Assembly: GCA_041395505.1 (NCBI GenBank)
Contig: JAWLAG010000002.1
Span: forward strand, 555,556 to 619,555
Source: Steroidobacteraceae bacterium
GTDB lineage: Bacteria; Pseudomonadota; Gammaproteobacteria; Steroidobacterales; Steroidobacteraceae
Direction of reading: 5' to 3'
DNA length: 64,000 nt
Shown here: positions 5,009 through 41,638 of the stretch, one piece after another
Position numbering within the stretch: the first letter of the stretch is position 1
Layout of the letters: each line of letters opens with the position of its first letter
Program-made: the position numbers and the translations under genes
The notes under the pieces: model-generated
What the model was told of the DNA's origin: nothing
What the model saw: the letters and a program-made list of their open reading frames with translations, nothing else
Databases searched by the model: none

Positions 5009-7294
5009 ATGACATCCATTGATCCGACCCGGCCATTTGCGCTCGCGGATTGGCTGGTCGACCCGGCGCTCGATGAAATATCCCGCGGTGGTGTTCGGAT
5101 CAAACTCGAGCCTCGCATGATGCGACTGCTGTGCATGCTCGCCCGGGATGCCGGCAAGGTTGTTTCGCAAACCGAGCTCCTCGACCACGTCTGGAGTGGC
5201 GTCATCGTCGGCCCCAACTCCGTCTACCAGGCGATAGCAAACCTGAGGCGACAGCTCGGCGACACGGACGAAACGGCTCGCTTCATTGCGACGGTGCCTC
5301 GCAAAGGGTACCGCCTGGTCGCCGAAGTCAGGCAACCACCGGATCCACCTGCCGCGCTGCCCGCACAGGTCACGCAACCGCCCGCGGCTGTCGCGGCGAG
5401 TGCTCGACCATCGACCACACGTAGCCGGCGCGAGATTGCGCTGGGGATCGTGGCAGCAATGATTCTCGCCATCGGTGCATGGTGGCAATTGCGCCAAACT
5501 GCGCTGCCGGCGGACAGACCAACGGTCGCCGTACTGCCCTTTGATGACCTCAGCGCCGAGGGAAACAATGAAGTGTTCTGCCAGGGGCTGACAGATGAAG
5601 TGCTGAACTCGCTCGCGCGTATTCCGAACCTGCGTGTCATCGGCCGCACGTCGAGCAGCCGTTTCGCGGACAGCACCGAAAATGCGCGGCAGATCGGCGG
5701 CACGTTGGGTGCTTCGCATCTGCTCGAAGGATCGGTCAGGCGATCGGGCAACCGTGTGCGGGTCAGCGCTCAACTGGTCAGCACGGAGGATGGTGTCGAA
5801 GTCTGGGCCAACTCCTACGACCGCGCCGCAAGCGACGCGTTGCAGATCCAGTCGGAAATAGCCCGGGCCGTAACCACGGCGTTGTCACTTAGGCTCTCGC
5901 CGGCCGTTGCGGAAAGGCTCGCAAGCGATCCGACCTCGAAAATGAGCGCCTACGATCTGTACCTGCTCGGCCGCAACCAGCAACAGAAACGTACGCCGGA
6001 GTCACTGGCTCGTGCGATTGAATATCACGAGGCTGCCATCGCCGCGGACCCTGGCTTTGCGCTGGCACACGCCGGATTGGCCGACGCCCAGATGGCACGC
6101 TACTACTATGCGGGTGCGTCGCTCGAGGAAACTGCGGCGCGCGTGCAGCCCGAGGTCGATGCGGCGCTGCGACTCGATCCAGAGCTGGCGGAAGCCTACG
6201 CCGCGTGGGCCGTGCTGTTGACAGAGCAGTGGCGCACGGATGAAGCCATCAAGGCATTGCAGCGTGCAGTCGCCATAAACCCGAACTACGGCGAGGCCTA
6301 CCTGCGCCTCGGTGCTGCCTACGAATACGCCAGCCGCCCACGCGATGCGCTGGCCGCCTACGATCAGGTCGCCCTGCTCGACCCATTGCACACCATCATG
6401 CACGTCCGTCGCTGCCTCGCTTTGCAGAATCTTGGGCGTTTCGCGGATGCCGAGCGTGCCTGCCAGCGGGCTTTCGAATTGCAGCCGGAAATTCCGAATG
6501 CACTCTGGGCCTGGGGACTGAACGACCTGGCGCAAGGCCGGCTGGAAGCGGCCGCCGGACACTACCTGGCGGCATTGAGCCGCGCACCCGCACGAGGCGA
6601 CATCCGTGCTGAGCTCGTGCTCATCTATCTCGATCTCGGCCAGTCGGAGCTGGCCAGGGAACAACTCGATCGGCTGCGAGCTGGCGCGCCGCCCGCTTTG
6701 CTGCGCGCAACGGCCGCGCGCTACCTGTTGGCGACGAGCCGCGACAAGATTGTCAATCTGCCCGCCGATCTTGATTCGATCCCCGGCGAGTCGCGTCGTG
6801 ACGCCGTTCAGTGGGCATTCCTCAGGCTTGCAGGCGGCGATCTCGCGGGGGCCAGGCAACGGGCCGCCGCTGCGCTCGAGAATCGCGCTGCGCTCCTCGA
6901 TGAACTGACCATGGGCGTCTACCAGACGCGCTGGGGGGTTTGCGATTTATGCGCGGCCGGTACGTTGCTGCGGACACTCGACGACAAGGCCTCCGCCGAA
7001 CCGTTGGAGCGCGATGCATTGCGAAACCTGGATGAACTGGAAGCCGCGGGGCACGTCTGGCATGGCCTGCATTACCTGCGAGCCGCTCTGCAGGCGCAGC
7101 GCGGCGACGCGACCAGTGCACTCGCCTCATTGCGGCGGGCGATCGGACTTGGCTGGCGCCGCGCCTGGTTGATGCGGCGTGACCCGAGTTTCGAATCCGT
7201 GCGCGGGCTGCCTGAGTACACGCGACTGCTCGCGCAGGTCGACGGTGCGAATGCAATCTCCGCCGCGAGTCTGGCAGTCAGCTCCCGCCAATGA
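5009..7294 (+). CDS. Membrane-anchored transcriptional regulator: CadC/OmpR-type winged-helix DNA-binding domain + TM + TolB-N-like + TPR repeats
   Basis: 761 aa. N-terminus FALADWLVDPALDEISRGGVRIKLEPRMMRLLCMLARDAGKVVSQTELLDHVWSG..VPRKGYRL is a trans_reg_C domain. A TM helix follows (IALGIVAAMILAIGAWW). The periplasmic part has VAVLPFDDLS..IPNLRVIGRTSS (TolB-N-like) and many TPR-like helical repeats. Confidence 0.8.
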   Translation: MTSIDPTRPFALADWLVDPALDEISRGGVRIKLEPRMMRLLCMLARDAGKVVSQTELLDHVWSGVIVGPNSVYQAIANLRRQLGDTDETARFIATVPRKGYRLVAEVRQPPDPPAALPAQVTQPPAAVAASARPSTTRSRREIALGIVAAMILAIGAWWQLRQTALPADRPTVAVLPFDDLSAEGNNEVFCQGLTDEVLNSLARIPNLRVIGRTSSSRFADSTENARQIGGTLGASHLLEGSVRRSGNRVRVSAQLVSTEDGVEVWANSYDRAASDALQIQSEIARAVTTALSLRLSPAVAERLASDPTSKMSAYDLYLLGRNQQQKRTPESLARAIEYHEAAIAADPGFALAHAGLADAQMARYYYAGASLEETAARVQPEVDAALRLDPELAEAYAAWAVLLTEQWRTDEAIKALQRAVAINPNYGEAYLRLGAAYEYASRPRDALAAYDQVALLDPLHTIMHVRRCLALQNLGRFADAERACQRAFELQPEIPNALWAWGLNDLAQGRLEAAAGHYLAALSRAPARGDIRAELVLIYLDLGQSELAREQLDRLRAGAPPALLRATAARYLLATSRDKIVNLPADLDSIPGESRRDAVQWAFLRLAGGDLAGARQRAAAALENRAALLDELTMGVYQTRWGVCDLCAAGTLLRTLDDKASAEPLERDALRNLDELEAAGHVWHGLHYLRAALQAQRGDATSALASLRRAIGLGWRRAWLMRRDPSFESVRGLPEYTRLLAQVDGANAISAASLAVSSRQ

Positions 7295-8063
7295 TTCGTT
7301 GCGGACAGGGATGCACTCGATACAGCACCTCGTAGTGCGCAATGAACTGGACACGCCGGGCACTTAGCGGATAGGTGATCAGCCAGAGCGGCAGGTTATC
7401 CGGCGTGACGTCGCTGTCTGCGCGCGGGGAGCGAGCCAACACAAGGGATCCGTTCAACGGACCCACGTCACTGAGGAATACGGGGTCAGTGGCGCTGACC
7501 TGTACCCACTTCGGCCAAAGTGTCTCGCATTCTGTCACGCTGCCCCTTCGCGGCATGGCCATCGAAGGCATGGAAGTGGCTTGGTGGCTGATCGGCTGCG
7601 TGATCGCAACGGGCTGGCCGTCATTACCCACGGCTGTACGACCACCCCGCGGCAGGGGCAATGCCTCGATTTCGTGTACAACCTGTGCAACGTTGCGCAG
7701 TTCAATGACTTCGTCCCGGCTGGCTGAACCACCCGCAATACGCACCGTCACGGGCGAGCCGCGGCCAAGATCCGGAATTGAAACAACCAGGCGCACCCGA
7801 CCAGAGGCGTCCTGGGAGTCCGCGGACGACTGGCAGCGATAACGCAGGCGATCCGGGTAGATGCAGGTGACCTCGAACGGACCCGCTCGGGCCGCGCTTG
7901 CCGAAAGATCGAAAGCGACTCGATTGACCGGTCCTGCCGGCCCGATGGCCTGGGCGCTCGGGACTGCCGACAACGCAGTCCTGCCTGTTACGATGGAGGC
8001 GCCTTCGGACGCCAACCCGGCGGTCGCAATCATGCAGCCTGCCACCGCGATCATCGATCGCAT
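7278..8063 (-). CDS. Hypothetical secreted protein
   Basis: Signal peptide MRSMIAVAGCMIATAGLA. No recognisable domain. Lies 50-70 bp downstream of the ECF sigma gene on the same strand. Confidence 0.5.
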   Translation of the reverse strand: MRSMIAVAGCMIATAGLASEGASIVTGRTALSAVPSAQAIGPAGPVNRVAFDLSASAARAGPFEVTCIYPDRLRYRCQSSADSQDASGRVRLVVSIPDLGRGSPVTVRIAGGSASRDEVIELRNVAQVVHEIEALPLPRGGRTAVGNDGQPVAITQPISHQATSMPSMAMPRRGSVTECETLWPKWVQVSATDPVFLSDVGPLNGSLVLARSPRADSDVTPDNLPLWLITYPLSARRVQFIAHYEVLYRVHPCPQRIIGGS

Positions 8064-8128
8064 GACGCGCGCGGATATCATGCGATGCTAAACGATCAGG
8101 CGAACGCAGTTGGCTCAACCGGGCAGCC

Positions 8129-8683
8129 CTAGCAGCCGGCCAGTGCCTGCCTGTCGAGAAGTCCGCGCAACCTTGCGATTGCATATTTCTTGCGGCTCAA
8201 TACCGTGTCGGTCGGTGCTTGGCATTTCGCAGCCATGTCACGGATGCTGCTGCCGCCGCACCACAATGCCAGAACCTTGCGCTGCTCCGCCGGCAGACGC
8301 TCGACGGCACTGCTGAGGACCTTGCGAACCTGGTCCTGCTGGGCGGCGGATTCCGGACCGCTCTCGTGCACCGCGTGATCAATCATCGTGTCGAGTATCG
8401 CTGGGTCGGTTGCACTGGTACGGGTGCTGGCATGCTTGCGCGTGTACTCGTCGAGGAACGCATTTCGAGCCACCGTGAAGAGAAAGGCACGCATTTGCGC
8501 CTCATCGGCACAGTCGCAGGCTGCGCGCGACTGCGCGTCCAGTACCTTCAGCCACGCAACTTGGGCCAGGTCCTCGGCGCGCTGTGGACAGCGGGTCATC
8601 CTGAACAGAAAGCGAACCAGGCTGCGGTGGTGGTGATTGAACAGTTGCGTTATGCACGGGCGGCTGGATTGGGCATTCGACAT
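8129..8683 (-). CDS. ECF-family RNA polymerase sigma-70 factor
   Basis: Region 2 (LAQVAWLKVLDA, FLFTVARNAFLDEYTRK) and region 4 (LPAEQRKVLALWCGGSSIRDMAAKCQAPTDTVLSRKKYAIARL) motifs. ORF extends to 8764. Start at MSNAQ.. (about 8683) gives a typical 184 aa. Confidence 0.8.
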   Translation of the reverse strand: MSNAQSSRPCITQLFNHHHRSLVRFLFRMTRCPQRAEDLAQVAWLKVLDAQSRAACDCADEAQMRAFLFTVARNAFLDEYTRKHASTRTSATDPAILDTMIDHAVHESGPESAAQQDQVRKVLSSAVERLPAEQRKVLALWCGGSSIRDMAAKCQAPTDTVLSRKKYAIARLRGLLDRQALAGC

Positions 8684-8862
8684 GGTAGTGGCTCCCGGGT
8701 TTGACACAGTGGTCATTGAGCCGGGCGCCGCGCGCAGGGTCCTCAAGCTAGGCTGAAGGATCACTCAAGAATTGCTTATGAGGGGCACCGGCCACTGCTG
8801 CCAAGCCATTTCCGGGCGGGTAATCGTTGTTACGTCGCATCCCAACGCCCAGGAGTCGACTC

Positions 8863-10109
8863 CCATGCCCGCCAAACCCAGCGTACTGGTCGCTGCCCTG
8901 ACAGGTTGCGCCACTGTCCTGCCGCAAGCATTTGCCGCCAATGCCGAATTCCAGAACTTTTTCTTCGATGTCTGCCAGTCTCCAACCGGGCAGCTCGCCG
9001 CCCGATGCGGGGAAACCCCCGCTGGCCTGGGCAATCTCTCCGGTGACAGCGAGTCATCGCTGAACCCCAGCCAGAACATCGGCCATAGCCGACCCGCATT
9101 GAGCTCGGCGCAATCGCGCAGCAAGGCGGTGCGCGAGAAGGGCGAAAAGCTGCGTGACGGCGGCCCGCTGTCAAACGGCGATGACACGACCGCGGTCGCC
9201 GGACCGCTGTCGGTACTCGTCAACATCCACGCGAGCTGGTTCGAGCGCGACAGCAAGGACAATGCTTCGGAACGAAATTTCGATGGCGACAGCCGGGCGC
9301 TCGAAATCGGGCTCGATTATCGTCGTTCGGACCGCCTGGTCATGGGCGCGCTGGTCGGCTATGAAAAGAGCGACTACGCCTTTGCGGCCGAAGCACCCGG
9401 CGTCAATTTCGTGCCCGCTGCGAGTGCGGGCTCGGCCGACGGCAAGCAGCGCTACCTTACCGTTTTCGGAACCTGGCGCATCAGCGACCGCTTCTACATG
9501 GAACTGAGCGCCGGTTCCGAGCGTGGCGATTCGGACTTCGCCCGCAACCCGGTCTTTCAGGAATCGACCAGGTCCCTTCCCCAGTTCGATGTGCGGGTGG
9601 CGGGCAGCGCCAGTATCCGCACCAACTGGGCGAGCATCAACGCGGGATTCGATCAACAGCGCGGTGCTGTCAGTTTCGGTCCCTATGCTGGTGTGACGCT
9701 CTCACGTACACGTATTGGATCTTACGAGGAAACCGATTTGAACGGATCGGGCCTCAACATGGCGTTCGATGCCTCGTCACGAAACTCGCTGTTGGCACAC
9801 GCGGGCATGCGTATCGGCTATTCTGCCAGCTCCCGGTTGGGCGTCGTATTGCCGCAGCTGCGCCTCGAGTATCAACAGGAACTCAAGGCTGATGCGGGGC
9901 GGGCAACAGCCCGCTTCGTCCAGGATGGCGCAGCAACGAACTATTCCTTCAACGGACAACAGGGCGATCGCAATGCCCTGAACGCCGGGCTTAGCGTGGC
10001 CTGCATACTGCCTGGTGGTTGGATGCCGTTCATTGACTATTCGATACTGGTCGGCAGTGAAGACTTCGACAGGCAGCGGGCCACGCTCGGCCTGCGGGTT
10101 GAGTTCTAA
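8863..10109 (+). CDS. Outer-membrane beta-barrel protein (autotransporter-beta-domain-like)
   Basis: AGGAG Shine-Dalgarno 8 nt upstream of ATG. Signal peptide MPAKPSVLVAALTGCATVLPQAFA. Alternating amphipathic beta-strand pattern. C-terminal ..LGLRVEF with terminal Phe, typical of OMP barrels. Confidence 0.6.
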
Positions 10110-12130
10110 CGAGCTTTTTCGCGCCCATCGGCGACCAGGAAGAATTCACCCGCCTCGTGACCGGCGAATCGGATCGGAGCGTACTCCGGCACCTGATCAA
10201 ATCGCATGTTCGCCGCGGCATAGGCAACACGGGCGGCAACCTCGCGATGCAATCGCTGGCCTTCGAGGATGCCATCGTTGGCATCCAGGACCTGAAGTAG
10301 CGCCTTGGCGAATACCGAGTGTCGCCCGCCGCCCGCGTCGAGCACGGGCGCAACGCCACCCGAGGTGAGTACCGTCCTTGACCGTTTCTGTGCCATGGTG
10401 CGCAACCAGTGCATGCGTTCGATATCACTCATGCCGGTGTCGAGGTGAGCCATGGCGGATCTCGTCAGCGCGCCCGCATAGCATGAATCGACGACCAGCA
10501 TGACCTGTTTGGCGCGCATGATATTGATGAGGTCGGTGACGGCAGTCGTTGGAATCCAGTTGGCCGTGCTGTTTCGTTCGGCGTCCACAGGTAACCAGTG
10601 GCCGCGCTGATTGACCTCATCGAGCTCACCATGCCCGGCGAAGTAGATCAGCAGGTTGTCTTCGCTGGTGAGTGACTCGCGCAGGTTGTTAAGCGCCGAA
10701 AGGACCTGATACCGATCCGCATCGATGAGCACAGTCGTTGCAAATCCATAGCGGCGCTGCAAAACATCCGCGAGATCCTTCGCATCATCGATGGGTGATG
10801 ACAATTTCGGGAGGAAGCGGTAATTGTTGTTACCGATGATCAGCGCGTGGAAACGGCCGAAGGCGCTGCGTGGCAGTTCGCCAGGTAGCCGGGTGCGGCT
10901 CGGCCGGTTATCCACGGCAGGATGCACGCTCGCGCCACGAAACGCGAAATGCAGATCGGAGCGTTTGCCCTGCGCATCGATGGCGGTGATCAGCACGGGG
11001 ATTTCGGCGTCGCTGGCCTTCAGATCCATCCTGAATACGCCGAACTCATTGGTATTCACAACCTGGTCATTGACACTCAACATGGTCAATCCGGCAGGTG
11101 CAGTCACGCGGCCGACAATATGGGTCCCGGTTGCGGTCGCAGCGACCGGTACGATGTCACGGGTCTTGCTGAGCAATGGTTCGATCAGCGTGACTTCCGG
11201 ACCTGCGAGCAATCCCTGCCTGATCGGCAGGCGCAGGCTCTCGAGTTCCGCACGAACTCGCTGAAGCTCACTGTCAAGCCCCGAGGCGCGGTCACGCTGG
11301 ACAGTCAATTCCTGTTCGCGAGCAGTCAACTGCGCGGTCAGCTGCACGAACCGAGCCTTCTCGTTCGCCAGAGCCGCATCCGAGTCAGTCGTGCCCGCTT
11401 CCAGCTCGGTGACTCGTTGCGCCTGGGCGGCACCTTCGCGTCGTGCGATCTCGAGTTGCGACTGTAGCTCATCAGCCACGCGGCGTTGTTCATCATAGTT
11501 GTGCTGCAGCGCTGCGGCTTTGCTTTGCAGCGCTTCGAGCGCGGTGGTCATCGAGGATTCTGCGGCGGCGGTTTGCAGCCTGTCGATGGCAACGCCAATG
11601 CCCTTGCCGGCCGCTCGACGGTACCACTCCAGGGCAGTCGCAGCATCGGGTGCAACGCCCAATCCCCGCTCGAAGAGCTGACCGATGTTGACCTCTGCGC
11701 GCGCATCGCCCTGATCAGCGGCACGACGGTACCAGCCCATCGCAGCAGCATAGTCGGGGCCAACGCCCATGCCGCGCTCGTAGATTTCACCGACGATTAC
11801 CTGCGCTGACTTGTCGCCCCGCTCAGCCGCCGGTAGCCAGGCCGCAAGCGCACTGGCGAGGTCCGCCCGATCGTAGGACACGAACTCGCCGCCCCGGATC
11901 TGGCACTCGCGGGCAGGCAATCGTGCCGGGCGACGCGCGGTCATATAGACGCTGCGCTGACCCAGGGTGCGCACCTGCCCCGGCAACAGGCAGTCGACCA
12001 CCAACCATTGCGTTGTGCTATCGGGTTCGGCTGCCACCGCTCGAGCGCCCCCGAGCGAAGTGGCCGCCATCGCCACGGCGCAAGCGCCGATGAAACCGCG
12101 TCGCCAATCCCCTGTTCGCGCAATAGACAC
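10106..12130 (-). CDS. Secreted Sel1-repeat / coiled-coil / caspase-like (peptidase C14) protein
   Basis: 674 aa. Signal peptide. Three Sel1-like repeats (AQVIVGEIYERGMGVGPDYAAAMGWYRRAADQGDARAEVNIGQLFERGLGVAPDAATALEWYRRAA). Long coiled coil. C-terminal caspase fold with catalytic His (LLIYFAGHGE) and Cys (MLVVDSCYAGAL). Confidence 0.8.
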   Translation of the reverse strand: MSIARTGDWRRGFIGACAVAMAATSLGGARAVAAEPDSTTQWLVVDCLLPGQVRTLGQRSVYMTARRPARLPARECQIRGGEFVSYDRADLASALAAWLPAAERGDKSAQVIVGEIYERGMGVGPDYAAAMGWYRRAADQGDARAEVNIGQLFERGLGVAPDAATALEWYRRAAGKGIGVAIDRLQTAAAESSMTTALEALQSKAAALQHNYDEQRRVADELQSQLEIARREGAAQAQRVTELEAGTTDSDAALANEKARFVQLTAQLTAREQELTVQRDRASGLDSELQRVRAELESLRLPIRQGLLAGPEVTLIEPLLSKTRDIVPVAATATGTHIVGRVTAPAGLTMLSVNDQVVNTNEFGVFRMDLKASDAEIPVLITAIDAQGKRSDLHFAFRGASVHPAVDNRPSRTRLPGELPRSAFGRFHALIIGNNNYRFLPKLSSPIDDAKDLADVLQRRYGFATTVLIDADRYQVLSALNNLRESLTSEDNLLIYFAGHGELDEVNQRGHWLPVDAERNSTANWIPTTAVTDLINIMRAKQVMLVVDSCYAGALTRSAMAHLDTGMSDIERMHWLRTMAQKRSRTVLTSGGVAPVLDAGGGRHSVFAKALLQVLDANDGILEGQRLHREVAARVAYAAANMRFDQVPEYAPIRFAGHEAGEFFLVADGREKAR

Positions 12131-12271
12131 TCCGCCACCTCACCGTCCTGCCACTGTGCCGCGATCAATAACGAACCACTTCGCACAAATGGCGTGCCGA
12201 CAGGCTCAAGACCACTTCCTCGCCATGATTCGTTCTGCACCGACAGGGAACGCGAAAGAGGCCTGACACCG

Positions 12272-13300
12272 ATGAATCCCGCACGAGATTTCCATATCAA
12301 GACGCTGCTTCTGATCGCGGGCTTGTCCCTGGCGAGCCAGACGCCTGGCCATTGCCAGGAGGTCGTCCAGACGGCCGATTTTCCACCCGTCGCCGCGCCG
12401 GGCGAGCTCACGTCGAGTGGCCCGATCATCCCGGACAGTCCGCCGCGACCGAGTTTCAAGCGACTTTTCGCGCAGACCCTGGGTAACGTCGTGCAAGCTG
12501 GCGGCGCGGTCCTGCTGAATGGATTGACTCAAACCATCACGGGCGGTTTGACTGAATGGTTCAGTCGCAAGTTGAAGGTCGCACCGCAGGCTTCCGTGGC
12601 CGCCCAGGAGCCACTCCCGGTGCCGGACGCGAACGGGTTCGCCCAATCTACCGGACAACCGCTGGTCTCGAGTGCGTCCCAACCGCGCTTCTTCGATCCG
12701 GCAACCGGCGCACCACTGACTGGCGATTCGCAGTTTTCCCAGAACCTGGAGGCCGGTGCGACGGGCGGCGAAATGTTTGCCGGCCTTGCATTCGAGGTTC
12801 ATTTGCTTTTTCCCGACGGATCGACGCAGCCTGTGGATCCGGCGGGTCATGAATTCCGGTCGGGGGACCGCTTCATCGTATTCCTGCGCCCCACACTGCC
12901 CGGACAGATGGACGTCTTCAATATCAATCCAGCCGGGCAGCAGACGCAGATTGACCATATCGATCTCGCTGGCGCGCAACTTGCCCAGCTGGGTCCATAC
13001 GAGTTCACTGCGCTCACAGGAAACGAACAGTTGCGGCTCGTCCTGACGCCCTGCGCGACGCCGCAACTTCTCGCAGCCACGCGGGACATCGTGAACGTTG
13101 CCGCCATCGATGCCGCTGGCAGCGGCCTTGGCAGTTGCGCGCAAGCGAACCGTTTCGCCGCCGCGGCGACGACCCGCGACATCCGCAAGGTAGCGGTCGA
13201 AGGTGCCACAGCGTTCGCGCTCGATGCGGTTGCGCCTGCGGAACTCGACTCAGGCGCCGTCGCACCACGCGAAATTACGATCTTCTTCAGACATCTTTAG
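12272..13300 (+). CDS. Hypothetical secreted protein
   Basis: Signal peptide MNPARDFHIKTLLLIAGLSLASQT. The longer ORF from 12008 overlaps the caspase gene and is probably artefactual. No recognisable domain. Confidence 0.5.
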   Translation: MNPARDFHIKTLLLIAGLSLASQTPGHCQEVVQTADFPPVAAPGELTSSGPIIPDSPPRPSFKRLFAQTLGNVVQAGGAVLLNGLTQTITGGLTEWFSRKLKVAPQASVAAQEPLPVPDANGFAQSTGQPLVSSASQPRFFDPATGAPLTGDSQFSQNLEAGATGGEMFAGLAFEVHLLFPDGSTQPVDPAGHEFRSGDRFIVFLRPTLPGQMDVFNINPAGQQTQIDHIDLAGAQLAQLGPYEFTALTGNEQLRLVLTPCATPQLLAATRDIVNVAAIDAAGSGLGSCAQANRFAAAATTRDIRKVAVEGATAFALDAVAPAELDSGAVAPREITIFFRHL

Positions 13301-13352
13301 ACAGCAACCCTCTGGCGCCGTATCCCGTTCAATCACTCCGGAGATTCATCGA

Positions 13353-14501
13353 ATGCAATTGACCCGCCGACAGCTGCTCGCCTGCGCGAGCGCCACGTTG
13401 CTGACACCCGCTGCGTTCGCACGCCCCAAGCAGCCCTACACCTCCTCCGCGCTCGGACTTGTCATGAAGGCCAATGCGAAAAGCAGGACGCACAGCTACT
13501 TCCTCGTCGTCAGCAGCTTTGAACGGTATTTTCTCGGCAGGCGCAGGGCGTCGTTGACAGGCTATCTCGTGAGCATCGGCACACCGCAGCTGGTCGCCGC
13601 CGCCAACTCGGCATTGCAGACATTATCCGTTGGGGTCAACGTGGATCCCGATGCGGTGCGCGCGCGTATCCGCGCCGCAATCGAACGAAATGTCTCCGGC
13701 GCGATGATGCAGGAGCTGCGGCCGGAGCAGCTCACACGCCTGCTTGGAGAACAGGGCTTTCGCACCGGCAATACATCGCTGGCGGCCGAGGGCGACTTCA
13801 TCGGCGGCGTACTGACGGCGGGTGGGGCCTTCGCCGGCGTTGCGGGCAGCAGCGCAGCCTCTACATCGGTTGCCGCCATCGCCACCGCGGGCGGCGCGGC
13901 GGCCGGAGGAGCCGGCATCGCTGCTGCATCGGCCGGGTATGGCGCATACCAGGTCGCGGGTGCATTTCTTGACGCGGTTGGCGCAAACGATGGCTATACG
14001 CTCGGTGACCTGATTTACGACCTGTTGCACCCTGGCGAAGAAGGCAACCGGGTCTGGAGCAGCGATTCGTCGAGCCAGGGCCCTGCATCGGGCACGACAT
14101 TGCCGCCCGGCTTCGGCCCTGAGTCCGATCCAGGCCGCAACATCGTGTTTCAGATCGTCATGGGGCTTGCAACCAATTCATCGCTCGGTCGCAACGTCAT
14201 TGCACGCCCGCCAACGCTCGCAAGCACGCCGATTCCAGGTGCCGACGGCGTGACCAACCTTGCGCTACTGTTGCGATTCGACGCAATGCTCGGTGGCGCG
14301 TATTTCAAATTGGTGCAGCGCTCGCTGAATGCGCGGCAAAACGGCACCGCTACGACGGATCCGGATATCACCCAGGGCACGGCCAACGGACCTATCATGG
14401 TCGACTACTCGAAGTGTCCGCCTGCCGATGTCAATGCGATGCGCCTTTCAGCCTACCTGGCGTCGGCAAGCGGCGCATTGACCCGCATCGCCGCACGCTA
14501 G
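13353..14501 (+). CDS. Hypothetical protein with Tat-like signal and Gly/Ala-rich segment
   Basis: GGAG 10 nt upstream. MQLTRRQLLACASATLLTPAAFA resembles a twin-arginine signal. Internal low-complexity GA-rich stretch. Confidence 0.5.
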   Translation: MQLTRRQLLACASATLLTPAAFARPKQPYTSSALGLVMKANAKSRTHSYFLVVSSFERYFLGRRRASLTGYLVSIGTPQLVAAANSALQTLSVGVNVDPDAVRARIRAAIERNVSGAMMQELRPEQLTRLLGEQGFRTGNTSLAAEGDFIGGVLTAGGAFAGVAGSSAASTSVAAIATAGGAAAGGAGIAAASAGYGAYQVAGAFLDAVGANDGYTLGDLIYDLLHPGEEGNRVWSSDSSSQGPASGTTLPPGFGPESDPGRNIVFQIVMGLATNSSLGRNVIARPPTLASTPIPGADGVTNLALLLRFDAMLGGAYFKLVQRSLNARQNGTATTDPDITQGTANGPIMVDYSKCPPADVNAMRLSAYLASASGALTRIAAR

Positions 14502-15818
14502 CTAGCGCGTACTGGCGGGTGGATGCTCGGCCAACCAGCGCATCGCCATCTGGACGCGGGTATGTCCACTCGGGTGATCGTAGAAGATAACCTCTTCAAT
14601 CGGACCTGGACTGATCTTGCGATAGGTTGACAGGCGCATGGCGACGCTGGCGAACCCTTCGGGTTCGCCGGCCGCATTCAGACCGAAGATGTCTGCCTCC
14701 GATTCGAAAACACGGGTGATGTTGTTGAACACCGGGGTCGCCAGGAAACCCAGCACCGACAGGATCGCCATCGCCAGCGGCAAGCCTGCAATGTCCCCTC
14801 GGTCATAGATGCCAAAGCGCGCGCCGCGTCTTGCGACGAAGCGGCTCAGGATCCGCTGCAGCAAATACAAGAGCAGCGCGATGACGAGCGCATAGCCTAT
14901 GATGGTCTTCCAGCCATGATGCAGCACGTAATGGCCCATCTCGTGGGCCATCACTGCGCGTATTTCCGGCAAGCTGGTATGCTCGAGAAGGTTGTCATTG
15001 AGACTGATGCGCGTCGTGCCGAGCGCGCCGGATACGTTGGCGCTGATCCGGGTTGTCTGCCGCGACGCATCGAAGCGATATACGTTATCCGCCGGCACGC
15101 CATTGGCGCGCGCCAGGGACAGGATCTGGTCACGCACCGGGCCGGCTTCAAGCGGCTTGTAGTCGTTGAATAGCGGCGCGATGAAAACCGGCGACAGGGC
15201 GACCAGAACAATTATCACCGCTGTAACGATACCGCTCGCCCAGACCCAGGCGTGTTCGCGCGCGCGTCGCACGGCCGCATAGATCGTGGCGATGACAGGC
15301 GCACCGATGAGGACATCGATGGCGAGCGACAGCAACTGCTCGCCGAACCAGGGCAGGAAGGTCTGTGTCGCGAGCTCGTACTGGCGTTCACGGTACCAGT
15401 TCTGGTAGATATCGAGCGGCAGCGTGAGCACCCAGGACACGACCAGAAAGATGGCGGCGAAGACCGCCGCCTGACGCCAGGGGCCGCCGGCGTGACGACC
15501 GATCAGATCGCGCAGGCGCGCCGCGCGTTTGCCCATGAGCCACCAGGCGGCGACCGCCAGTGACCATAGCAGGCCCCAGACTTGCAGCCAGTAGCCGCCT
15601 TCGAAGTAGGCGTCCGAGCGCGCCCGGGCGGCAGCGGGTAACGTGTCGATCCAGGCCTGTGTGGCCTTGTCGACATCGAAGTCCTTGTGCCATTCGGCTG
15701 CCGCAGGCACGGTCAGCTCAGCCGCGCCTGCCGTAAACGCCAGCGTCGCGAGCATCAAGCCCGACAGCAGGTAGGCTGCGGCTCGCGGCGCAAATCGGCA
15801 AGGTATCTTCATGGTCAT
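14502..15818 (-). CDS. M48-family zinc metallopeptidase (Ste24/HtpX-like) with multiple TM helices
   Basis: HEMGHYVLHH (HExxH) motif plus downstream Glu. Several hydrophobic helices. Start taken at MTMKIP (15818) before the signal-like segment. Confidence 0.8.
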   Translation of the reverse strand: MTMKIPCRFAPRAAAYLLSGLMLATLAFTAGAAELTVPAAAEWHKDFDVDKATQAWIDTLPAAARARSDAYFEGGYWLQVWGLLWSLAVAAWWLMGKRAARLRDLIGRHAGGPWRQAAVFAAIFLVVSWVLTLPLDIYQNWYRERQYELATQTFLPWFGEQLLSLAIDVLIGAPVIATIYAAVRRAREHAWVWASGIVTAVIIVLVALSPVFIAPLFNDYKPLEAGPVRDQILSLARANGVPADNVYRFDASRQTTRISANVSGALGTTRISLNDNLLEHTSLPEIRAVMAHEMGHYVLHHGWKTIIGYALVIALLLYLLQRILSRFVARRGARFGIYDRGDIAGLPLAMAILSVLGFLATPVFNNITRVFESEADIFGLNAAGEPEGFASVAMRLSTYRKISPGPIEEVIFYDHPSGHTRVQMAMRWLAEHPPASTR

Positions 15819-15928
15819 CGCCCTTTTCCGGGATACGGTGCGGCATTGTAACGGGATGGCCACCGCCGCCAACTGCCGATCCGACGGGCCGGTGGGATAT
15901 CATGTTCGCTTGCGACTGGAGAATCCCG

Positions 15929-16315
15929 ATGAGCTACCACTTCTCTAAAACGGTTAACCTGCCCTTCGATCAGGCGATCGCCAAAGTCACGGCGGAACTT
16001 GCCGCCCGCGGCTTCGGCGTGCTGACCGAAATCGACGTCGCCGCGACGCTGCGCAAGAAGATCAACGTCGAGTTTCGGCCCTATCGAATCCTGGGCGCCT
16101 GTAATCCGCGCTTTGCCTACCAGGCGCTGTCGGCGGAGGACAAGATCGGCACCATGCTGCCCTGCAATGTCATCGTCCAGGAGCTGGGGCCGGGCCGCGT
16201 CGAGGTATCCGCCGTCGACCCGATTGCATCCATGCAGGCAGTGCGTAACCCGTCGCTCGAACCCATTGCCACGCAAGTGCAGGGCCTGCTCAAGGAGTGC
16301 GTGGAAGCCGTGTAA
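15929..16315 (+). CDS. DUF302-domain protein
   Basis: GGAG upstream. MSYHFSKTVNLPFDQAIAKVTAELAARGFGVLTEIDV..ILGACNPRFAYQAL is characteristic of the DUF302 family. Confidence 0.75.
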   Translation: MSYHFSKTVNLPFDQAIAKVTAELAARGFGVLTEIDVAATLRKKINVEFRPYRILGACNPRFAYQALSAEDKIGTMLPCNVIVQELGPGRVEVSAVDPIASMQAVRNPSLEPIATQVQGLLKECVEAV

Positions 16316-16366: not shown

Positions 16367-18430
16367 ATGCGGATGATTTGCTTCGGTCTCGCGGTGCTCA
16401 GCGCCACATTGACATCGGCCGTCGCGATTGCGGGGACGGCCACGCAGCCCGAGACAGCGGGCGTCGAGAACAAGGCGCCGCTGACGCTTGAGGACCTCTA
16501 TTCTCCAGTGTCGCTCCCCGACGCAGCGGTATCGCCATCGGGTCGTTACCTCGCGTTCATCAACCGCAATGAGGACGAGGATCAGCTGTTCGTCCTGGAC
16601 CTCGCGAACGGCAGTTCCGCCGCCATCATCGCCATGTCGCGCGACAAGGTGGTCCAGAAGTCCGATGCATATATCATTTCAGTGTATTGGAAGTCGGATC
16701 AAAGACTGATATTTCGCACGCGCGTCGTGCCCGATGAAGACGCGCGCACGTTCACCTACACAATTCAGCAATACCAGAAATTCGGCGACCGGCTGTTCGC
16801 CATTGATCGTGATGGCAAGAACCTCTTGCGGCTGCTGCAGGATAACCGTGACCAGGGCCTGGTCGGGACACTGGACCTCGGATCGATCGCAGACCTCCTG
16901 CCGAGGGATAACCAACACATCCTGATGATCGTCAATGGCGACTATGGCCCCAGCCTGATGCAGGTCGACATTGCCACGGGACGCGGTGCCGTCATCGAGA
17001 AACCGAACGCGAAGATTGTCAGCTGGTGGCTCGATGTCGATGGCAAACCCGTTGTGCAGGTACAGGTTTCGGCTGGCACAGTGACCTATCTGCGCAAACT
17101 CGACGATGGCAATTGGAAGCCCTTCCACAAGGAGCGATTGCGCGAAATGCGCGAACGCGACTCGGACTATGACGCCATCGGACCCGCGGATGTGGCGGGC
17201 AAATACTACGTGCTCGCACGACCACCGGGCCGCGACCGGCGAGGCGTGTACCTCTACGACCTCGGCAGCGAATCATTCGGCGAGCCGATCATCGAGCACA
17301 GCCAATTCGACCTGGAATCTGCGCATGCTTCCGCGGATGGCAAGGGTATTGCGTGGTATTGCTACCTGGCGCACGTTCGCGTCTGCGAGTTCTCCGATCC
17401 CCGGATCAACGCACATATGCGCGGTTTGCGAAAGTTCTTTTCCGATCGGGCCGACGTCTCTGTCTTCGATTCATCCACGGACAACAAAGTCTTCCTGCTG
17501 CGCGTTGCGGGTCCCGCTGACCCGCCGGGCTTCTACTATTATCAGGTCGAGCAGAAGAGTATCCAGCCGCTCGGGGCGTTTCAGGGCGCCACGATCGGCA
17601 AGGCCATGCCATCGATGCAGGTGATCGACTACCAGGCGCGTGATGGCCTGGCGTTGCATGGCTATCTGACGATGCCACCCGGTGCGGACGGCCTCAAGAA
17701 TCTGCCGCTCGTTCTTTTCCCGCATGGCGGACCGGAGATTCGCGATCATCTCGCCTACGATCAATGGGTGCAGTTCATGGCCGCGCGTGGCTATGCCGTC
17801 TTCCAACCCAATTTTCGCGGCTCGGATGGATTTGGCCGGGCATTCAGCGAAAAGGGTTATCGCGAGTGGGGCGGCAAAATGCAGGATGATTTGATCGACG
17901 GTCTCGATGCACTCGCTCGCACCCAGCGTGTTGACCCCCGGCGCGTCTGTGTCGTCGGCATATCCTACGGCGGCTATGCGGCCTTGATGGCCGCTGCGCT
18001 CACTTCCGAGCGGTTCAAGTGCGCGGCTTCCGTCGCTGGCCCAACCGACCTGGTCGAATTCATCAATTGGCGAAAGCGCAATTGGGGCGATCAGTCGGAG
18101 GGTTACAAGTACTGGCTGAAGTCGATTGGCAATCCGGAAACCGACACCGCGAAGCTCGAAGCGCGTTCACCCGTGAACCTGGCCGCCGACATCAAGATTC
18201 CGGTGCTATTGATGCATGGCAGCGAAGATTTCGTCGTGCCCGTTCAACAATCGCGTCTCATGGCCAAGGCGCTCACCAAGGCCGGCAACGCGACAGAGCT
18301 CGTCGAAGTCAAACTCGAGACCCATCCTGCCTGGTCGGACGACAACGAGAAGCTGGCACTCAGGACTCTTGACGAGTTCCTGCGAAAACACCTGGGGCCG
18401 GGCGTCGGACAGCCAGCCGGGTTGCAGTAG
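16367..18430 (+). CDS. S9-family serine peptidase (prolyl oligopeptidase/dipeptidyl aminopeptidase-like) with N-terminal beta-propeller
   Basis: Signal peptide. C-terminal alpha/beta-hydrolase with GGPEIRD..FQPNFRGSDGFG..VCVVGISYGGYAAL (GxSxGG nucleophile elbow) and downstream Asp/His. Confidence 0.85.
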   Translation: MRMICFGLAVLSATLTSAVAIAGTATQPETAGVENKAPLTLEDLYSPVSLPDAAVSPSGRYLAFINRNEDEDQLFVLDLANGSSAAIIAMSRDKVVQKSDAYIISVYWKSDQRLIFRTRVVPDEDARTFTYTIQQYQKFGDRLFAIDRDGKNLLRLLQDNRDQGLVGTLDLGSIADLLPRDNQHILMIVNGDYGPSLMQVDIATGRGAVIEKPNAKIVSWWLDVDGKPVVQVQVSAGTVTYLRKLDDGNWKPFHKERLREMRERDSDYDAIGPADVAGKYYVLARPPGRDRRGVYLYDLGSESFGEPIIEHSQFDLESAHASADGKGIAWYCYLAHVRVCEFSDPRINAHMRGLRKFFSDRADVSVFDSSTDNKVFLLRVAGPADPPGFYYYQVEQKSIQPLGAFQGATIGKAMPSMQVIDYQARDGLALHGYLTMPPGADGLKNLPLVLFPHGGPEIRDHLAYDQWVQFMAARGYAVFQPNFRGSDGFGRAFSEKGYREWGGKMQDDLIDGLDALARTQRVDPRRVCVVGISYGGYAALMAAALTSERFKCAASVAGPTDLVEFINWRKRNWGDQSEGYKYWLKSIGNPETDTAKLEARSPVNLAADIKIPVLLMHGSEDFVVPVQQSRLMAKALTKAGNATELVEVKLETHPAWSDDNEKLALRTLDEFLRKHLGPGVGQPAGLQ

Positions 18431-39586: not shown

Positions 39587-41638
39587 TCATTTGCCGGTTT
39601 GCGTTGCCGCGAGGCCGCGAACGTGCTCGGCGCCTTCGCGCACCTCGTAGCTCGATCCGGCGAAATCGCCGCCGACCTCCTGGTAGCGCCCGCCCAGGCA
39701 TTGCGACAGGAAGCCTTCGGAGATCGCGTAGAACGACAGGCGGTTTTCAGGGCGGGCGAAGCCATGGCCCTCATCGGGATAGAGCACGTAGGTGACCGGC
39801 AGATTTTTTGCTTTCATTGCCGCTACGATCTGATCCGCCTCCGCCTGCTTGACCCGCGGATCGTTCGCACCCTGCGCAATCAGTAGCGGCCGCTCGATAG
39901 CCGAGACGCGGCTGAGCGGCGAGCGCTCGGCCAGCAATTTGCGGCCCTCCTCGGTGCGCGGATCGCCAACGCGGCGCGCCAGGTCCTCGAAGAACGACTT
40001 CCAGTAGGGCGGTATGGATTCGAGCAGGGTCATCAGGTTGGAGGGACCGACGATGTCGACCCCGCAGGCGAAGCGATCCGGTGTGAACGTGAGTCCGACC
40101 AGGGTGGCGTAGCCGCCGTAGGAGCCGCCGTAGATGGCGACCTTGTCCGCGGTCGTGATGTGCTTTGCGATGGCGTAGTCGACGGCGTCGATCAGGTCAT
40201 CGTGCATGCGCGCAGCCCATTGATGGTCACCGGCGTTGACGAATTCCTTGCCAAAACCCGTCGAACCACGGTAGTTCACCGAGAGCACGGCATATCCGCG
40301 ATTGGCGAGCCACTGGTGCTCCGCGTCGAAGCCGTAGTTGTCGCGCGCCCAGGGACCGCCGTGCACATTGAGTACCATGGGTAGCGGCGAGTCGGGTATG
40401 CCATCGCCATCCGGATCGGAGCCGCGCGGCAAGCTCAGGTAGCTCACCAGCGTGAGTCCATCGCGCGCCTTGATCGCAAGTGGATGCATGGCGACGAGTG
40501 GTGCGCCGATCAGCTGCGGACGCTGGTCGAAAAGCTTCACGACGCGGCCCGAATCGCGCTCATAGAGATAGCTCGCGTAGGCGCTGATCGGCTCATCGGA
40601 CACCACGATCCAACGCTTGTCATCGAGCGTGCGGCTCACGACTTCGAAACCCTCGCCGAGGGTATTGCGCAGGCGCTCGATATCGGCGCGCACGGCATCA
40701 TCGACCGCGGTGTACTCGTTGGTCAGGTAATTGACCGAATAGGCCTCGAGTACACGGCTGCGCGGATTGAGCCATACGCCCTGCACGTCGGCGCGCTCGT
40801 TCGCGGCGACGATCTTCCCGGCGCCGCTCGCAAGGTCGATGCTGACGAGCGCCGCCTTGTCGCGGCCTACGGCAGAGAGCAACAATGCGGAACGGCCGTC
40901 GCCACTGATGGCAACCGGGTTGGTGGTCAGGCTGTCGGCCTGGCCGAACCGAAGGAAACTCTGCCATTTGTCGCCATCGCGACGAAACAACTCGCCCCCA
41001 TCGGCATCGAGTTTTACGGCGAGTCGTGGCACCAGATCGAGATCTTCGAGGTAACCCGCGAAGCCCTGATCGTTGCGCTCGACGAGTCGGCGCTCGCCGG
41101 ATGCGATGTCGATTTCGTAGACATCGTGCCACTCCGGCGTACGGTCGTTGAGACCGACCAGTACCTTGCCCGGGTGCAGATGCGAGGCACCGATGACCTG
41201 CGCCTGGATGCCCTGCAGCGGCGTCAGGTCACGCTGTTTCGCATCGCGCACATCGACGCTGTACAGGCGCCAGTTCTCATCGCCACCCTCGTCCTGCAGA
41301 TAAAGGACGTGCTGGTTGTCGAATGACCAGAAGTGCTGCCTTATGCCGCGCTTGCGATCGTCTGTGATCGCGCGCGCGGCCGAGATGTCGTTGCTCGGCG
41401 CAACGAACACGTTCAACACGCCATCCTTCGGCGCGAGGTAGGAGATGTACGCGCCGTCCGGGCTCAAGCGCGCCTGGGTACGATCCGGATTGCCGAACAA
41501 TGCCGTGCGTGCAATGAGTGGAGTGGTTGTCTTTGTGTCGGACATCGTTGGCTCACCTTGTAGCGGCACGCAGGCTGCGAGCGATATCGCGGCCGGCAAC
41601 AGCAATCGTCTTATGTAGTTTGCAAACATCGGGGTCAC
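39587..41638 (-). CDS. S9-family serine peptidase with N-terminal beta-propeller (second paralog)
   Basis: Signal peptide. C-terminus NVHGGPWARDNYGFDAEHQWLANRGYAVLSVNYRGSTGFGKEF..IYGGSYGGYATL (GxSxGG) and Asp/His. Confidence 0.85.
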   Translation of the reverse strand: MTPMFANYIRRLLLPAAISLAACVPLQGEPTMSDTKTTTPLIARTALFGNPDRTQARLSPDGAYISYLAPKDGVLNVFVAPSNDISAARAITDDRKRGIRQHFWSFDNQHVLYLQDEGGDENWRLYSVDVRDAKQRDLTPLQGIQAQVIGASHLHPGKVLVGLNDRTPEWHDVYEIDIASGERRLVERNDQGFAGYLEDLDLVPRLAVKLDADGGELFRRDGDKWQSFLRFGQADSLTTNPVAISGDGRSALLLSAVGRDKAALVSIDLASGAGKIVAANERADVQGVWLNPRSRVLEAYSVNYLTNEYTAVDDAVRADIERLRNTLGEGFEVVSRTLDDKRWIVVSDEPISAYASYLYERDSGRVVKLFDQRPQLIGAPLVAMHPLAIKARDGLTLVSYLSLPRGSDPDGDGIPDSPLPMVLNVHGGPWARDNYGFDAEHQWLANRGYAVLSVNYRGSTGFGKEFVNAGDHQWAARMHDDLIDAVDYAIAKHITTADKVAIYGGSYGGYATLVGLTFTPDRFACGVDIVGPSNLMTLLESIPPYWKSFFEDLARRVGDPRTEEGRKLLAERSPLSRVSAIERPLLIAQGANDPRVKQAEADQIVAAMKAKNLPVTYVLYPDEGHGFARPENRLSFYAISEGFLSQCLGGRYQEVGGDFAGSSYEVREGAEHVRGLAATQTGK

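Follow-up and report, generated by a model that had tools for sequence, protein, structure and literature searches.

A predicted periplasmic caspase-family protease in a Steroidobacteraceae genome, its recurrent autotransporter neighbour and a candidate extracytoplasmic-function promoter motif

The subject of this analysis is a 64,000-nucleotide stretch of DNA from a Steroidobacteraceae bacterium (GenBank assembly GCA_041395505.1, contig JAWLAG010000002.1, positions 555,556 to 619,555 of the forward strand), referred to as the window in the following, and a caspase-family protease gene located within it. Coordinates are counted from the first letter of the window unless another locus is named. 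The 674-residue product of the gene is 100% identical to NCBI entry MEZ5500765.1, "MAG: caspase family protein [Steroidobacteraceae bacterium]" (MAG, metagenome-assembled genome), which is encoded on a 911-kb contig. The open reading frame (ORF) starts with a GTG codon and is preceded by a GAGG-type ribosome-binding site 8–11 nt 5' of the start. From the N- to the C-terminus, the protein comprises a signal peptide, an N-domain with two cysteines, Sel1 repeats, a coiled-coil hairpin, an immunoglobulin (Ig)-like sandwich, and a Peptidase_C14 domain. The individual features are as follows:

10106–12130 (−): caspase-family protease gene, 674 aa, exported Sel1/coiled-coil/Ig/C14 protein (ORF call, Pfam, NCBI identity)
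12032–12130 (−): predicted signal peptide, residues 1–33, cleavage AVA↓A (manual n/h/c analysis, equivalent N-termini in homologs)
11861–12004 (−): family-specific N-domain, residues 43–90 (invariant columns, cluster scan)
11606–11860 (−): Sel1 repeats, two clear and one partial or capping, residues about 91–175 (Pfam, AlphaFold2 model)
11219–11566 (−): antiparallel coiled-coil hairpin, residues 189–304, about 115 aa (AlphaFold2 model)
10937–11197 (−): Ig-like beta-sandwich, residues 312–398 (AlphaFold2 model; Big_6 and Glucodextran_B matches sub-threshold)
10133–10855 (−): Peptidase_C14 caspase-fold domain, residues 426–666 (Pfam, AlphaFold2 model, Foldseek)
10784–10786 (−): codon of the putative S1 acid D449
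10631–10633 (−): codon of the catalytic His H500, in YFAGHGE
10487–10489 (−): codon of the putative S1 acid D548
10481–10483 (−): codon of the catalytic Cys C550, in VVDSCYAG

In the Pfam scan, Peptidase_C14 (PF00656, clan CD) matched residues 428–650 with an E-value of 1.7e-24 and 87.2 bits (cut-off 21.4), spanning profile positions 3–223 of 233, and Sel1 (PF08238) scored 57.1 bits against a threshold of 30.7; nothing else in the protein exceeded threshold. Sel1 proteins of the PDB are matched with E-values down to 1e-51. The AlphaFold2 (AF2) model, built on 46 homologs, has a mean predicted local distance difference test score (pLDDT) of 79, with values above 90 for the greater part of the Sel1, coiled-coil, Ig and caspase regions. 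Residues 91–173 form paired helices of the Sel1 type, and the coiled coil consists of two helices of about 57 residues each (189–245 and 248–304). A first-pass annotation of the same DNA had described a caspase-like C14 protease with an intact His–Cys dyad, three Sel1 repeats, about 150 residues of coiled coil, and a beta-rich middle region. The ORF, the protease domain and its dyad are borne out by the Pfam match, the invariant H500 and C550 and the modelled fold, and the beta-rich region can now be specified as the Ig-like sandwich. Sel1 repeats are present in a slightly different number than described, and the coiled coil is real, albeit shorter.

The predicted structure of residues 426–666 has pLDDT values mostly above 85. 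Strands 491–498 and 542–548 end just ahead of H500 and C550, respectively, which corresponds to the canonical caspase-fold arrangement of catalytic residues following beta-strands. A Foldseek search against the PDB ranked the paracaspase MALT1 first (E 3e-12), ahead of metacaspases from plants and fungi, Geobacter GSU0716 and animal caspases, with a probability of 1.00 to MALT1, metacaspases, GSU0716, and caspases-6/-7. MALT1 is also the closest solved relative by sequence (E 1.4e-8, about 21% identity). In this alignment LIYFAGHGE pairs with LLYYAGHGY, which places H500 on the histidine of YYAGHG, and SPIDDAKDL pairs with APLVDVYEL, which places D449 on the aspartate of PLVDV. Among the 46 aligned homologs H500, C550, D449, and D548 are invariant. 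The intact dyad is indicative of a clan-CD/C14 cysteine protease that belongs to the orthocaspase/paracaspase type and is capable of catalysis.

For MALT1, we take H415 and C464 to be the catalytic residues and D365, D462, and E500 to form the S1 pocket. In this numbering, H500 presumably corresponds to H415, D449 to D365, and D548 of the "DSC" motif to D462. D548 is located two residues ahead of the cysteine, as in the DxC motif of MALT1 and metacaspases. Because D449 and D548 would match acidic S1-pocket positions of MALT1, the protease is predicted to cleave most likely after Arg or Lys (i.e., basic P1) and not after Asp. Cleavage after basic residues (Arg/Lys) is also described for orthocaspases (PMC6426788). 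The same source describes pseudo-orthocaspases as typically replacing the catalytic dyad, which bears on the notion that the window protein is a non-catalytic scaffold linking envelope partners via its Sel1, coiled-coil, and Ig domains. The many domains for protein interaction and the varying length of the coiled coil would suit such a pseudo-protease; yet His, Cys, and the flanking Gly and Asp are invariant in the 46 aligned homologs and in 80 of 81 loci, where the His and Cys motifs also keep a constant spacing. A scaffold without activity is thus regarded as extremely improbable.

By manual criteria, the N-terminus of the protease has an n-region with R5, R10, and R11, an Ala-rich h-region of 18 residues (12–29), and AVA↓A at positions 31–34. 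The N-termini of all full-length homologs are equivalent, and the signal peptide proposed in the first-pass annotation is retained accordingly. Anchoring as a lipoprotein was considered on account of an IGAC motif; since no more than 16 of 120 homologs have a lipobox-like motif, the rule is more likely to be a type I signal peptide. Additional pointers to export are the conserved Cys pair of the N-domain and the neighbouring genes, which encode exported or outer-membrane proteins. Judged from these sequence features, the protease is probably Sec-exported and resides in the periplasm.

The N-domain, about 50 residues directly after the signal peptide, follows the pattern VVDCLLPGQVRxLG...RRPxR..ARDCxIRGGEY..DRA with 14 invariant positions including C76; C47 is kept in at least 90% of the aligned sequences. 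A scan of 1.84 billion representative proteins recovered the domain in 810 representative clusters, always near the N-terminus. Among the proteins checked, it is always accompanied by Sel1 and, in full-length proteins, by C14. No Pfam model covers the N-domain, the best match being a non-significant one to DUF7368 (E 0.02). The AF2 model assigns it a pLDDT below 50, even though the majority of the invariant non-catalytic residues fall within it. Folding may require a partner; alternatively, the N-domain may serve as an Arg-rich pseudosubstrate.

The full architecture is shared by more than 1595 homologs at 45–60% identity, and at least 493 species-representative genomes encode a family member. 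Among the carriers are Steroidobacteraceae, Burkholderiales, Arenimonas (A. fontis being a cultured example), Methylococcaceae, Thiodiazotropha symbionts, Rokubacteria, Nitrospira, and Myxococcota. Variability is located in the coiled coil, whose expansion yields proteins of up to 1440 residues; the best-conserved region is the C-terminal caspase domain, with up to 77–80% identity while the remainder diverges. A 2012 survey counted Sel1 in 6% (40) of bacterial metacaspase sequences and read N-terminal hydrophobic segments as likely signal peptides (Asplund-Samuelsson et al. 2012, PMC3501461). The combination of Sel1 and C14 is hence already catalogued, and the window gene is an already-annotated member. 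"Poorly characterised", as the architecture was called in the first pass, remains a fair description; new it is not. No functional study of the Sel1/C14 protease family was found in the searchable literature. It should be noted that 512-residue variants lacking the N-domain and Sel1 occur in a Sedimenticolaceae MAG and an Escarpia endosymbiont, both related to sulfur-oxidising symbionts (L077 9542–11080 and L079 6466–8004), each with a 599-residue Ser/Thr kinase gene 37 bp downstream.

The gene that overlaps the protease gene in the window encodes an autotransporter:

8865–10109 (+): partner autotransporter with signal peptide, two-Cys loop, linker, and PF03797 barrel

The two genes are convergent and overlap by 4 bp. 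The autotransporter scores 116.8 bits with PF03797 (cut-off 26) and 39.4 bits with TIGR01414 (cut-off 16), and it displays the signal peptide, linker, and C-terminal barrel of a classical (type Va) autotransporter. It is minimal in that only about 55 residues with the Cys pair precede the linker, and it lacks a passenger domain. The mechanical ORF (8772–10109) is too long, and translation is probably initiated at ATG 8865, which follows an AGGAG site. An LTGC motif suggested a lipoprotein, an assignment that was discarded as the motif is not conserved.

Conservation of this pairing was assessed in a set of 80 loci picked solely by caspase similarity, whose flanking ORFs were searched and clustered. 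Thirty-five of these loci have at least 5 kb on both sides of the caspase gene and are referred to as well-flanked. A PF03797 barrel is encoded within 5 kb of the caspase gene, in any orientation, in 27 of the 35, and the pairing spans Gammaproteobacteria, Betaproteobacteria, Rokubacteria, Nitrospira, and Myxococcota. The density of barrel genes amounts to 83 per 100 kb of available DNA at 300 bp or less from the caspase gene (38 genes) as compared with 0.7 per 100 kb at a distance of 5–10 kb, an approximately 100-fold enrichment at the adjoining positions. Among these 38 genes, 21 lie on the same strand as the caspase gene and 17 on the opposite strand. Independent gene calls agree with the pairing. 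In the searchable literature, nothing relevant was found that links caspases or metacaspases to autotransporters. A passenger may be missing altogether or exceed 1500 residues, with Ig-like, Big_1, Calx-beta, DUF11, or PATR repeats. Of 52 autotransporters, 51 retain the barrel together with a Cys pair situated about 110–170 residues ahead of it. Because the translocator unit is conserved across passengers that are not related to one another, a functional contact of the protease would most likely involve the barrel, the linker or surface display itself, and not a particular passenger.

The missing passenger of the window barrel and the fact that both the caspase and the barrel protein have one conserved Cys pair would also be compatible with an exported effector or toxin, i.e. 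a Sec-dependent Tox-caspase with Sel1 repeats or a protease displayed or released via the passenger-less barrel. To our knowledge, type Va barrels do not export separate proteins. Sec-exported toxins with Sel1 or TPR (tetratricopeptide) repeats and C-terminal caspase-like toxin domains have been described (PMC3482391). In polymorphic toxins of this kind, however, the C-terminal toxin is variable and followed by an immunity gene (PMC3482391). In the present family, conservation is highest in the C-terminal caspase domain, which is no swappable cassette; the next gene downstream is the convergent autotransporter gene and nothing immunity-like, and secretion-system genes are absent from the cluster. 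The assignment as a polymorphic toxin was discarded on these grounds. Moreover, the family occurs mostly in free-living environmental lineages and under apparent sigma-factor control (see below). We therefore consider an exported toxin quite improbable.

Two more neighbours recur across phyla. A lipoprotein alpha/beta-hydrolase of about 280 residues with a GxSGGG motif is encoded near the caspase in 19 of the 35 well-flanked loci, and a single-pass Ser/Thr kinase of about 490 residues with a short TPR-like periplasmic tail in 18; neither matches any specific named family. Examples of such neighbours are found at L041 8976–9830, L004 9019–9897, and L035 7416–8882. At least one of autotransporter, hydrolase, and kinase is present in 34 of the 35 well-flanked loci. 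The hydrolase and kinase were looked for throughout the window and are absent, leaving the autotransporter as the only one of the three partners.

This neighbourhood is of relevance for the proposal, also made in the first pass, that the protein acts in conflict or a programmed response. A caspase-fold domain with an intact dyad may be found in an effector of programmed cell death or anti-phage defence, and the PADLOC models returned a weak, generic caspase match (E 6e-9, 33.5 bits). In addition, the NCBIfam model NF047832 (EACC1-associated caspase, of the conflict systems of Kaur et al. 2020) gave a sub-threshold match of 83.1 bits against a cut-off of 140. Five neighbours of the protease gave zero matches with PADLOC, and no NTPase, sensor or EACC1 partner and no defence or immunity gene is found nearby. 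A compositional anomaly was looked for at the protease locus and none was seen. The conflict-system reading was dropped because of this lack of defence-gene context, the sub-cut-off models, the predicted export of the protein, and the cross-phylum neighbourhood of envelope proteins. A defence effector is considered very improbable, and the data suggest a role in the envelope rather than in cell suicide.

Next to the autotransporter gene lies a gene for a sigma factor of the extracytoplasmic function (ECF) type, and comparison of upstream regions revealed a bipartite motif, AACGA-N15-TGGYYT. The corresponding features of the window are:

8129–8764 (−): ECF sigma factor gene (profile matches)
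8803–8828 (−): motif AACGA-N15-TGGCTT upstream of the sigma gene, exact copy
12209–12234 (−): motif AACGA-N15-TGGTCT, 75 bp upstream of the caspase start, exact copy
12170–12195 (+): one-mismatch motif copy upstream of hypA (equivalent copy in L081 at 8083–8108)
12269–13300 (+): hypA, secreted protein with Ig-like beta-sandwich, NCBI MEZ5500766.1, divergent from the caspase gene
7278–8081 (−): 267-residue exported protein without family match; in the close clade, its gene always follows directly on the sigma gene
5009–7294 (+): CadC/ToxR-like single-pass regulator with winged helix-turn-helix (wHTH), transmembrane residues 142–161, and periplasmic TPR domain

The sigma ORF starts too far 5'. 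Given the end of the promoter motif at 8803 and a gene call in L081 that begins at the counterpart of M28, ATG 8683 or 8716 is the probable start. The exact motif occurs twice in the 64-kb window, as compared with 0.08 expected occurrences, and none of 100 shuffles reached two. Both exact copies are correctly oriented for the sigma and caspase genes. Relatives at 50–60% identity (L001, L005, L037, L044, L081, L082, and L083) are referred to as the close clade. In L044, L081, and L082, the caspase, hypA, and sigma genes are preceded by matching sites at a distance of 70–120 bp; the motif is also found ahead of the CadC-like gene in L037 and L044 and ahead of an operon ending in the autotransporter gene in L082. 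Exact copies are confined to four close-clade loci, three of them with the sigma gene, and none was found in 79 other loci. No copy precedes the caspase gene of L083, and the retrieved flanks of L083 hold no sigma gene. In the window, no motif with two mismatches or less was found upstream of the wHTH–TPR gene, the gene for the 267-residue protein or hypB, and a scan for sigma-70 promoters and terminators gave counts no higher than in shuffled sequences. The motif looks like a selected promoter because protein identity between the loci is only about 57% and the 15-nt spacer is not conserved. Because the sigma gene itself carries the motif, the simplest reading is that the sigma gene is autoregulated, with a regulon that would include the caspase gene and hypA.

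A one-mismatch copy of the motif was also observed between the sigma stop and the start of the gene for the 267-residue protein, antisense to both (8091–8116, +). Antisense copies in the same place and orientation exist at L037 3185–3210, L044 12797–12822, L081 12916–12941, and L082 11079–11104, i.e. in five loci including the window. This copy may represent a sigma-dependent promoter that gives negative feedback.

The block of ECF sigma factor, exported protein of about 265 residues, and CadC-like regulator is kept beside the caspase gene in L037, L044, L081, and L082, and the position of hypA next to the caspase gene is conserved in the close clade. The neighbours named in the first-pass annotation, i.e. 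the barrel, the ECF sigma factor, and the divergent hypA and hypB, were all recovered, and the suggested stress-responsive envelope module gains support from the shared motif and the conserved block. Of the co-conservation that was to be checked for 8129–14501, the part concerning the autotransporter, hypA, and (within the close clade) the sigma block held. The part concerning hypB did not: hypB (13203–14501) has no homolog near any other family member and was dropped from the module. Its start is probably at 13353 (13353–14501, +), with an N-terminus, MQLTRRQLLACASATLLTPAAFA, that resembles a twin-arginine (Tat) signal, and it has no family match. An assignment of hypA to DUF4384 could not be established either, the hypA model being a generic Ig-like sandwich. 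Further along the flank are genes for an M48 (Ste24-like) membrane metalloprotease (14502–15872, −), a DUF302 protein (15902–16315, +), and an exported S9 prolyl-oligopeptidase-type enzyme (16367–18430), the last with a 25%-identical paralog at 39692–41584 (−). In L083, which lacks the ECF block, the caspase–autotransporter pair is flanked by genes for a TIR_2–TPR protein and a type VI secretion system Hcp protein (1–1189 and 11487–12062). The deeply conserved partner of the caspase is the autotransporter and not the sigma factor.

The most serious alternative follows from these regulatory neighbours. Here, the enzyme would be a signalling protease that cuts the periplasmic domains of membrane regulators (the CadC/ToxR-like protein in the close clade, Ser/Thr kinases elsewhere) or hypA; Sel1 would dock on the regulator, as the Sel1 protein ExoR does on the sensor ExoS, and the autotransporter would merely be a co-regulated surface component. 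In line with this, the close-clade cluster retains a CadC-like regulator that spans the membrane once and has a periplasmic TPR domain, the single-pass kinases of the 18 well-flanked loci have periplasmic tails of about 110–130 residues, hypA combines the promoter motif with divergent pairing to the caspase gene, and eight of the 35 well-flanked loci are devoid of an autotransporter yet encode a kinase and/or hydrolase. Conversely, no neighbour is as frequent or as close as the autotransporter (27 of 35 loci, in most cases at 300 bp or less), and the regulators vary by clade. Their periplasmic parts share no detectable homology; a relationship between the kinase tails and the CadC-like TPR domain in particular was looked for and not found. 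A signalling protease of this kind is thus judged unlikely, albeit the main rival.

On balance, the combined evidence slightly favours an ECF-controlled, Sec-exported periplasmic C14 protease with basic P1 that is functionally coupled to its autotransporter. The caspase domain would be held at the tip of a docking and spacer arm composed of N-domain, Sel1 repeats, coiled-coil hairpin, and Ig domain. If the caspase gene and hypA are transcribed from the promoter type of the ECF sigma gene, the protease would be produced within an envelope response. Regulated proteolysis could then take place at the periplasmic face of the outer membrane in a manner coupled to the autotransporter, resulting in the processing, release or control of the autotransporter or of something it holds. 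That the autotransporter itself is the substrate is speculative and appears rather doubtful. More far-reaching, and unlikely at present, is the idea that the family represents a hitherto unrecognised class of periplasmic proteases that are dedicated to type V surface proteins as accessory enzymes. In such a class the Sel1/coiled-coil arm would hold the caspase-fold enzyme under the outer membrane, and an envelope signal, relayed by the ECF sigma factor here and by Ser/Thr kinases elsewhere, would trigger a cut of the translocator unit from inside. The cut would free the passenger or unplug a passenger-less barrel, amounting to inside-out control of the surface from Proteobacteria to Nitrospira, Rokubacteria, and Myxococcota.

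Several observations weigh against coupling of an active, ECF-controlled protease to the autotransporter. A type Va autotransporter exposes very little to the periplasm once it is secreted, and eight of the 35 well-flanked loci have no autotransporter within 5 kb of the caspase gene. As hydrolase and kinase neighbours are common elsewhere, the core function of the family may not be centred on the autotransporter. The autotransporter gene of the window has no ECF motif, allowing for up to two mismatches, and position, orientation, and co-occurrence are all that the ECF-promoter label draws upon. The S1-pocket correspondence covers two of the three acids, with D598 as an unmapped third candidate, and a loop Arg at position 562 that is kept in more than 90% of homologs is a His in the window protein. 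Finally, activity and localisation of the family members are predictions from sequences and models, and export was judged by manual criteria.

Bacterial caspase homologs are numerous, and almost none has a known substrate or physiological role; usually, they are discussed in terms of cell death. A presumably exported family with a fixed autotransporter partner, recurrent signalling neighbours, and, in this lineage, a candidate ECF promoter provides a testable alternative without cell death. It offers putative substrates and a regulator that would induce the protease, along with a carrier in culture, Arenimonas fontis 3729k (locus L022), in which the autotransporter gene lies divergently at 108 bp and a kinase gene at 3.9 kb. 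Should the coupling to the autotransporter be proteolytic, it would constitute a new regulatory layer for type V secretion and a non-death function of a bacterial caspase fold; if not, the gene is one of the annotated representatives of a large family without an assigned function. The N-domain signature, the pan-phylum autotransporter pairing, the hydrolase and kinase neighbours, and the putative close-clade ECF control appear to be undescribed in the searchable literature.

Compared with known systems, LapG–LapD–LapA is the nearest working analogy for the window protease, in terms of functional logic only. LapG is a cysteine protease of the periplasm; it releases the adhesin LapA, which is anchored in the outer membrane, and is controlled by an inner-membrane receptor with a periplasmic domain. 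It differs in that it is a non-homologous protease of the BTLCP/C93 type, a domain that is absent from the Pfam scan of the window protease; moreover, its target is an adhesin of type I secretion, and its control is exerted by cyclic di-GMP and not by an ECF sigma factor or Ser/Thr kinase. MALT1 (PDB 3V4O, 3UO8) shares the ALxIGNxNY and YYAGHG...PVDA motifs and an Ig domain adjoining the protease domain; the acidic S1 positions would presumably correspond as well. Unlike the window protease, MALT1 is a eukaryotic, cytosolic protein with death and Ig domains that is activated by CBM-complex scaffolding, and its Ig domain follows the caspase domain instead of preceding it. The cyanobacterial orthocaspases (MaOC1) and GSU0716 (PDB 3BIJ) are, similarly, prokaryotic C14 proteins with a His–Cys dyad; we know of no orthocaspase that is paired with an autotransporter or an ECF sigma factor. 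The orthocaspases characterised so far are located in the cytoplasm or in membranes and have different accessory domains (PMC5756287). The 2012 survey of bacterial metacaspases records the same Pfam composition of Sel1 and Peptidase_C14; it is a catalogue, in which function, N-domain, coiled-coil/Ig arm, and ECF promoter are not covered and autotransporters are not mentioned (PMC3501461). Precedents for co-encoded periplasmic partners that work with the membrane anchor of an autotransporter are TpgA–AtaA and SadB–SadA (PMC12523085, PMC3953254). Unlike the window protease, TpgA and SadB are not proteases, and they serve trimeric (type Vc) autotransporters rather than monomeric PF03797 barrels.

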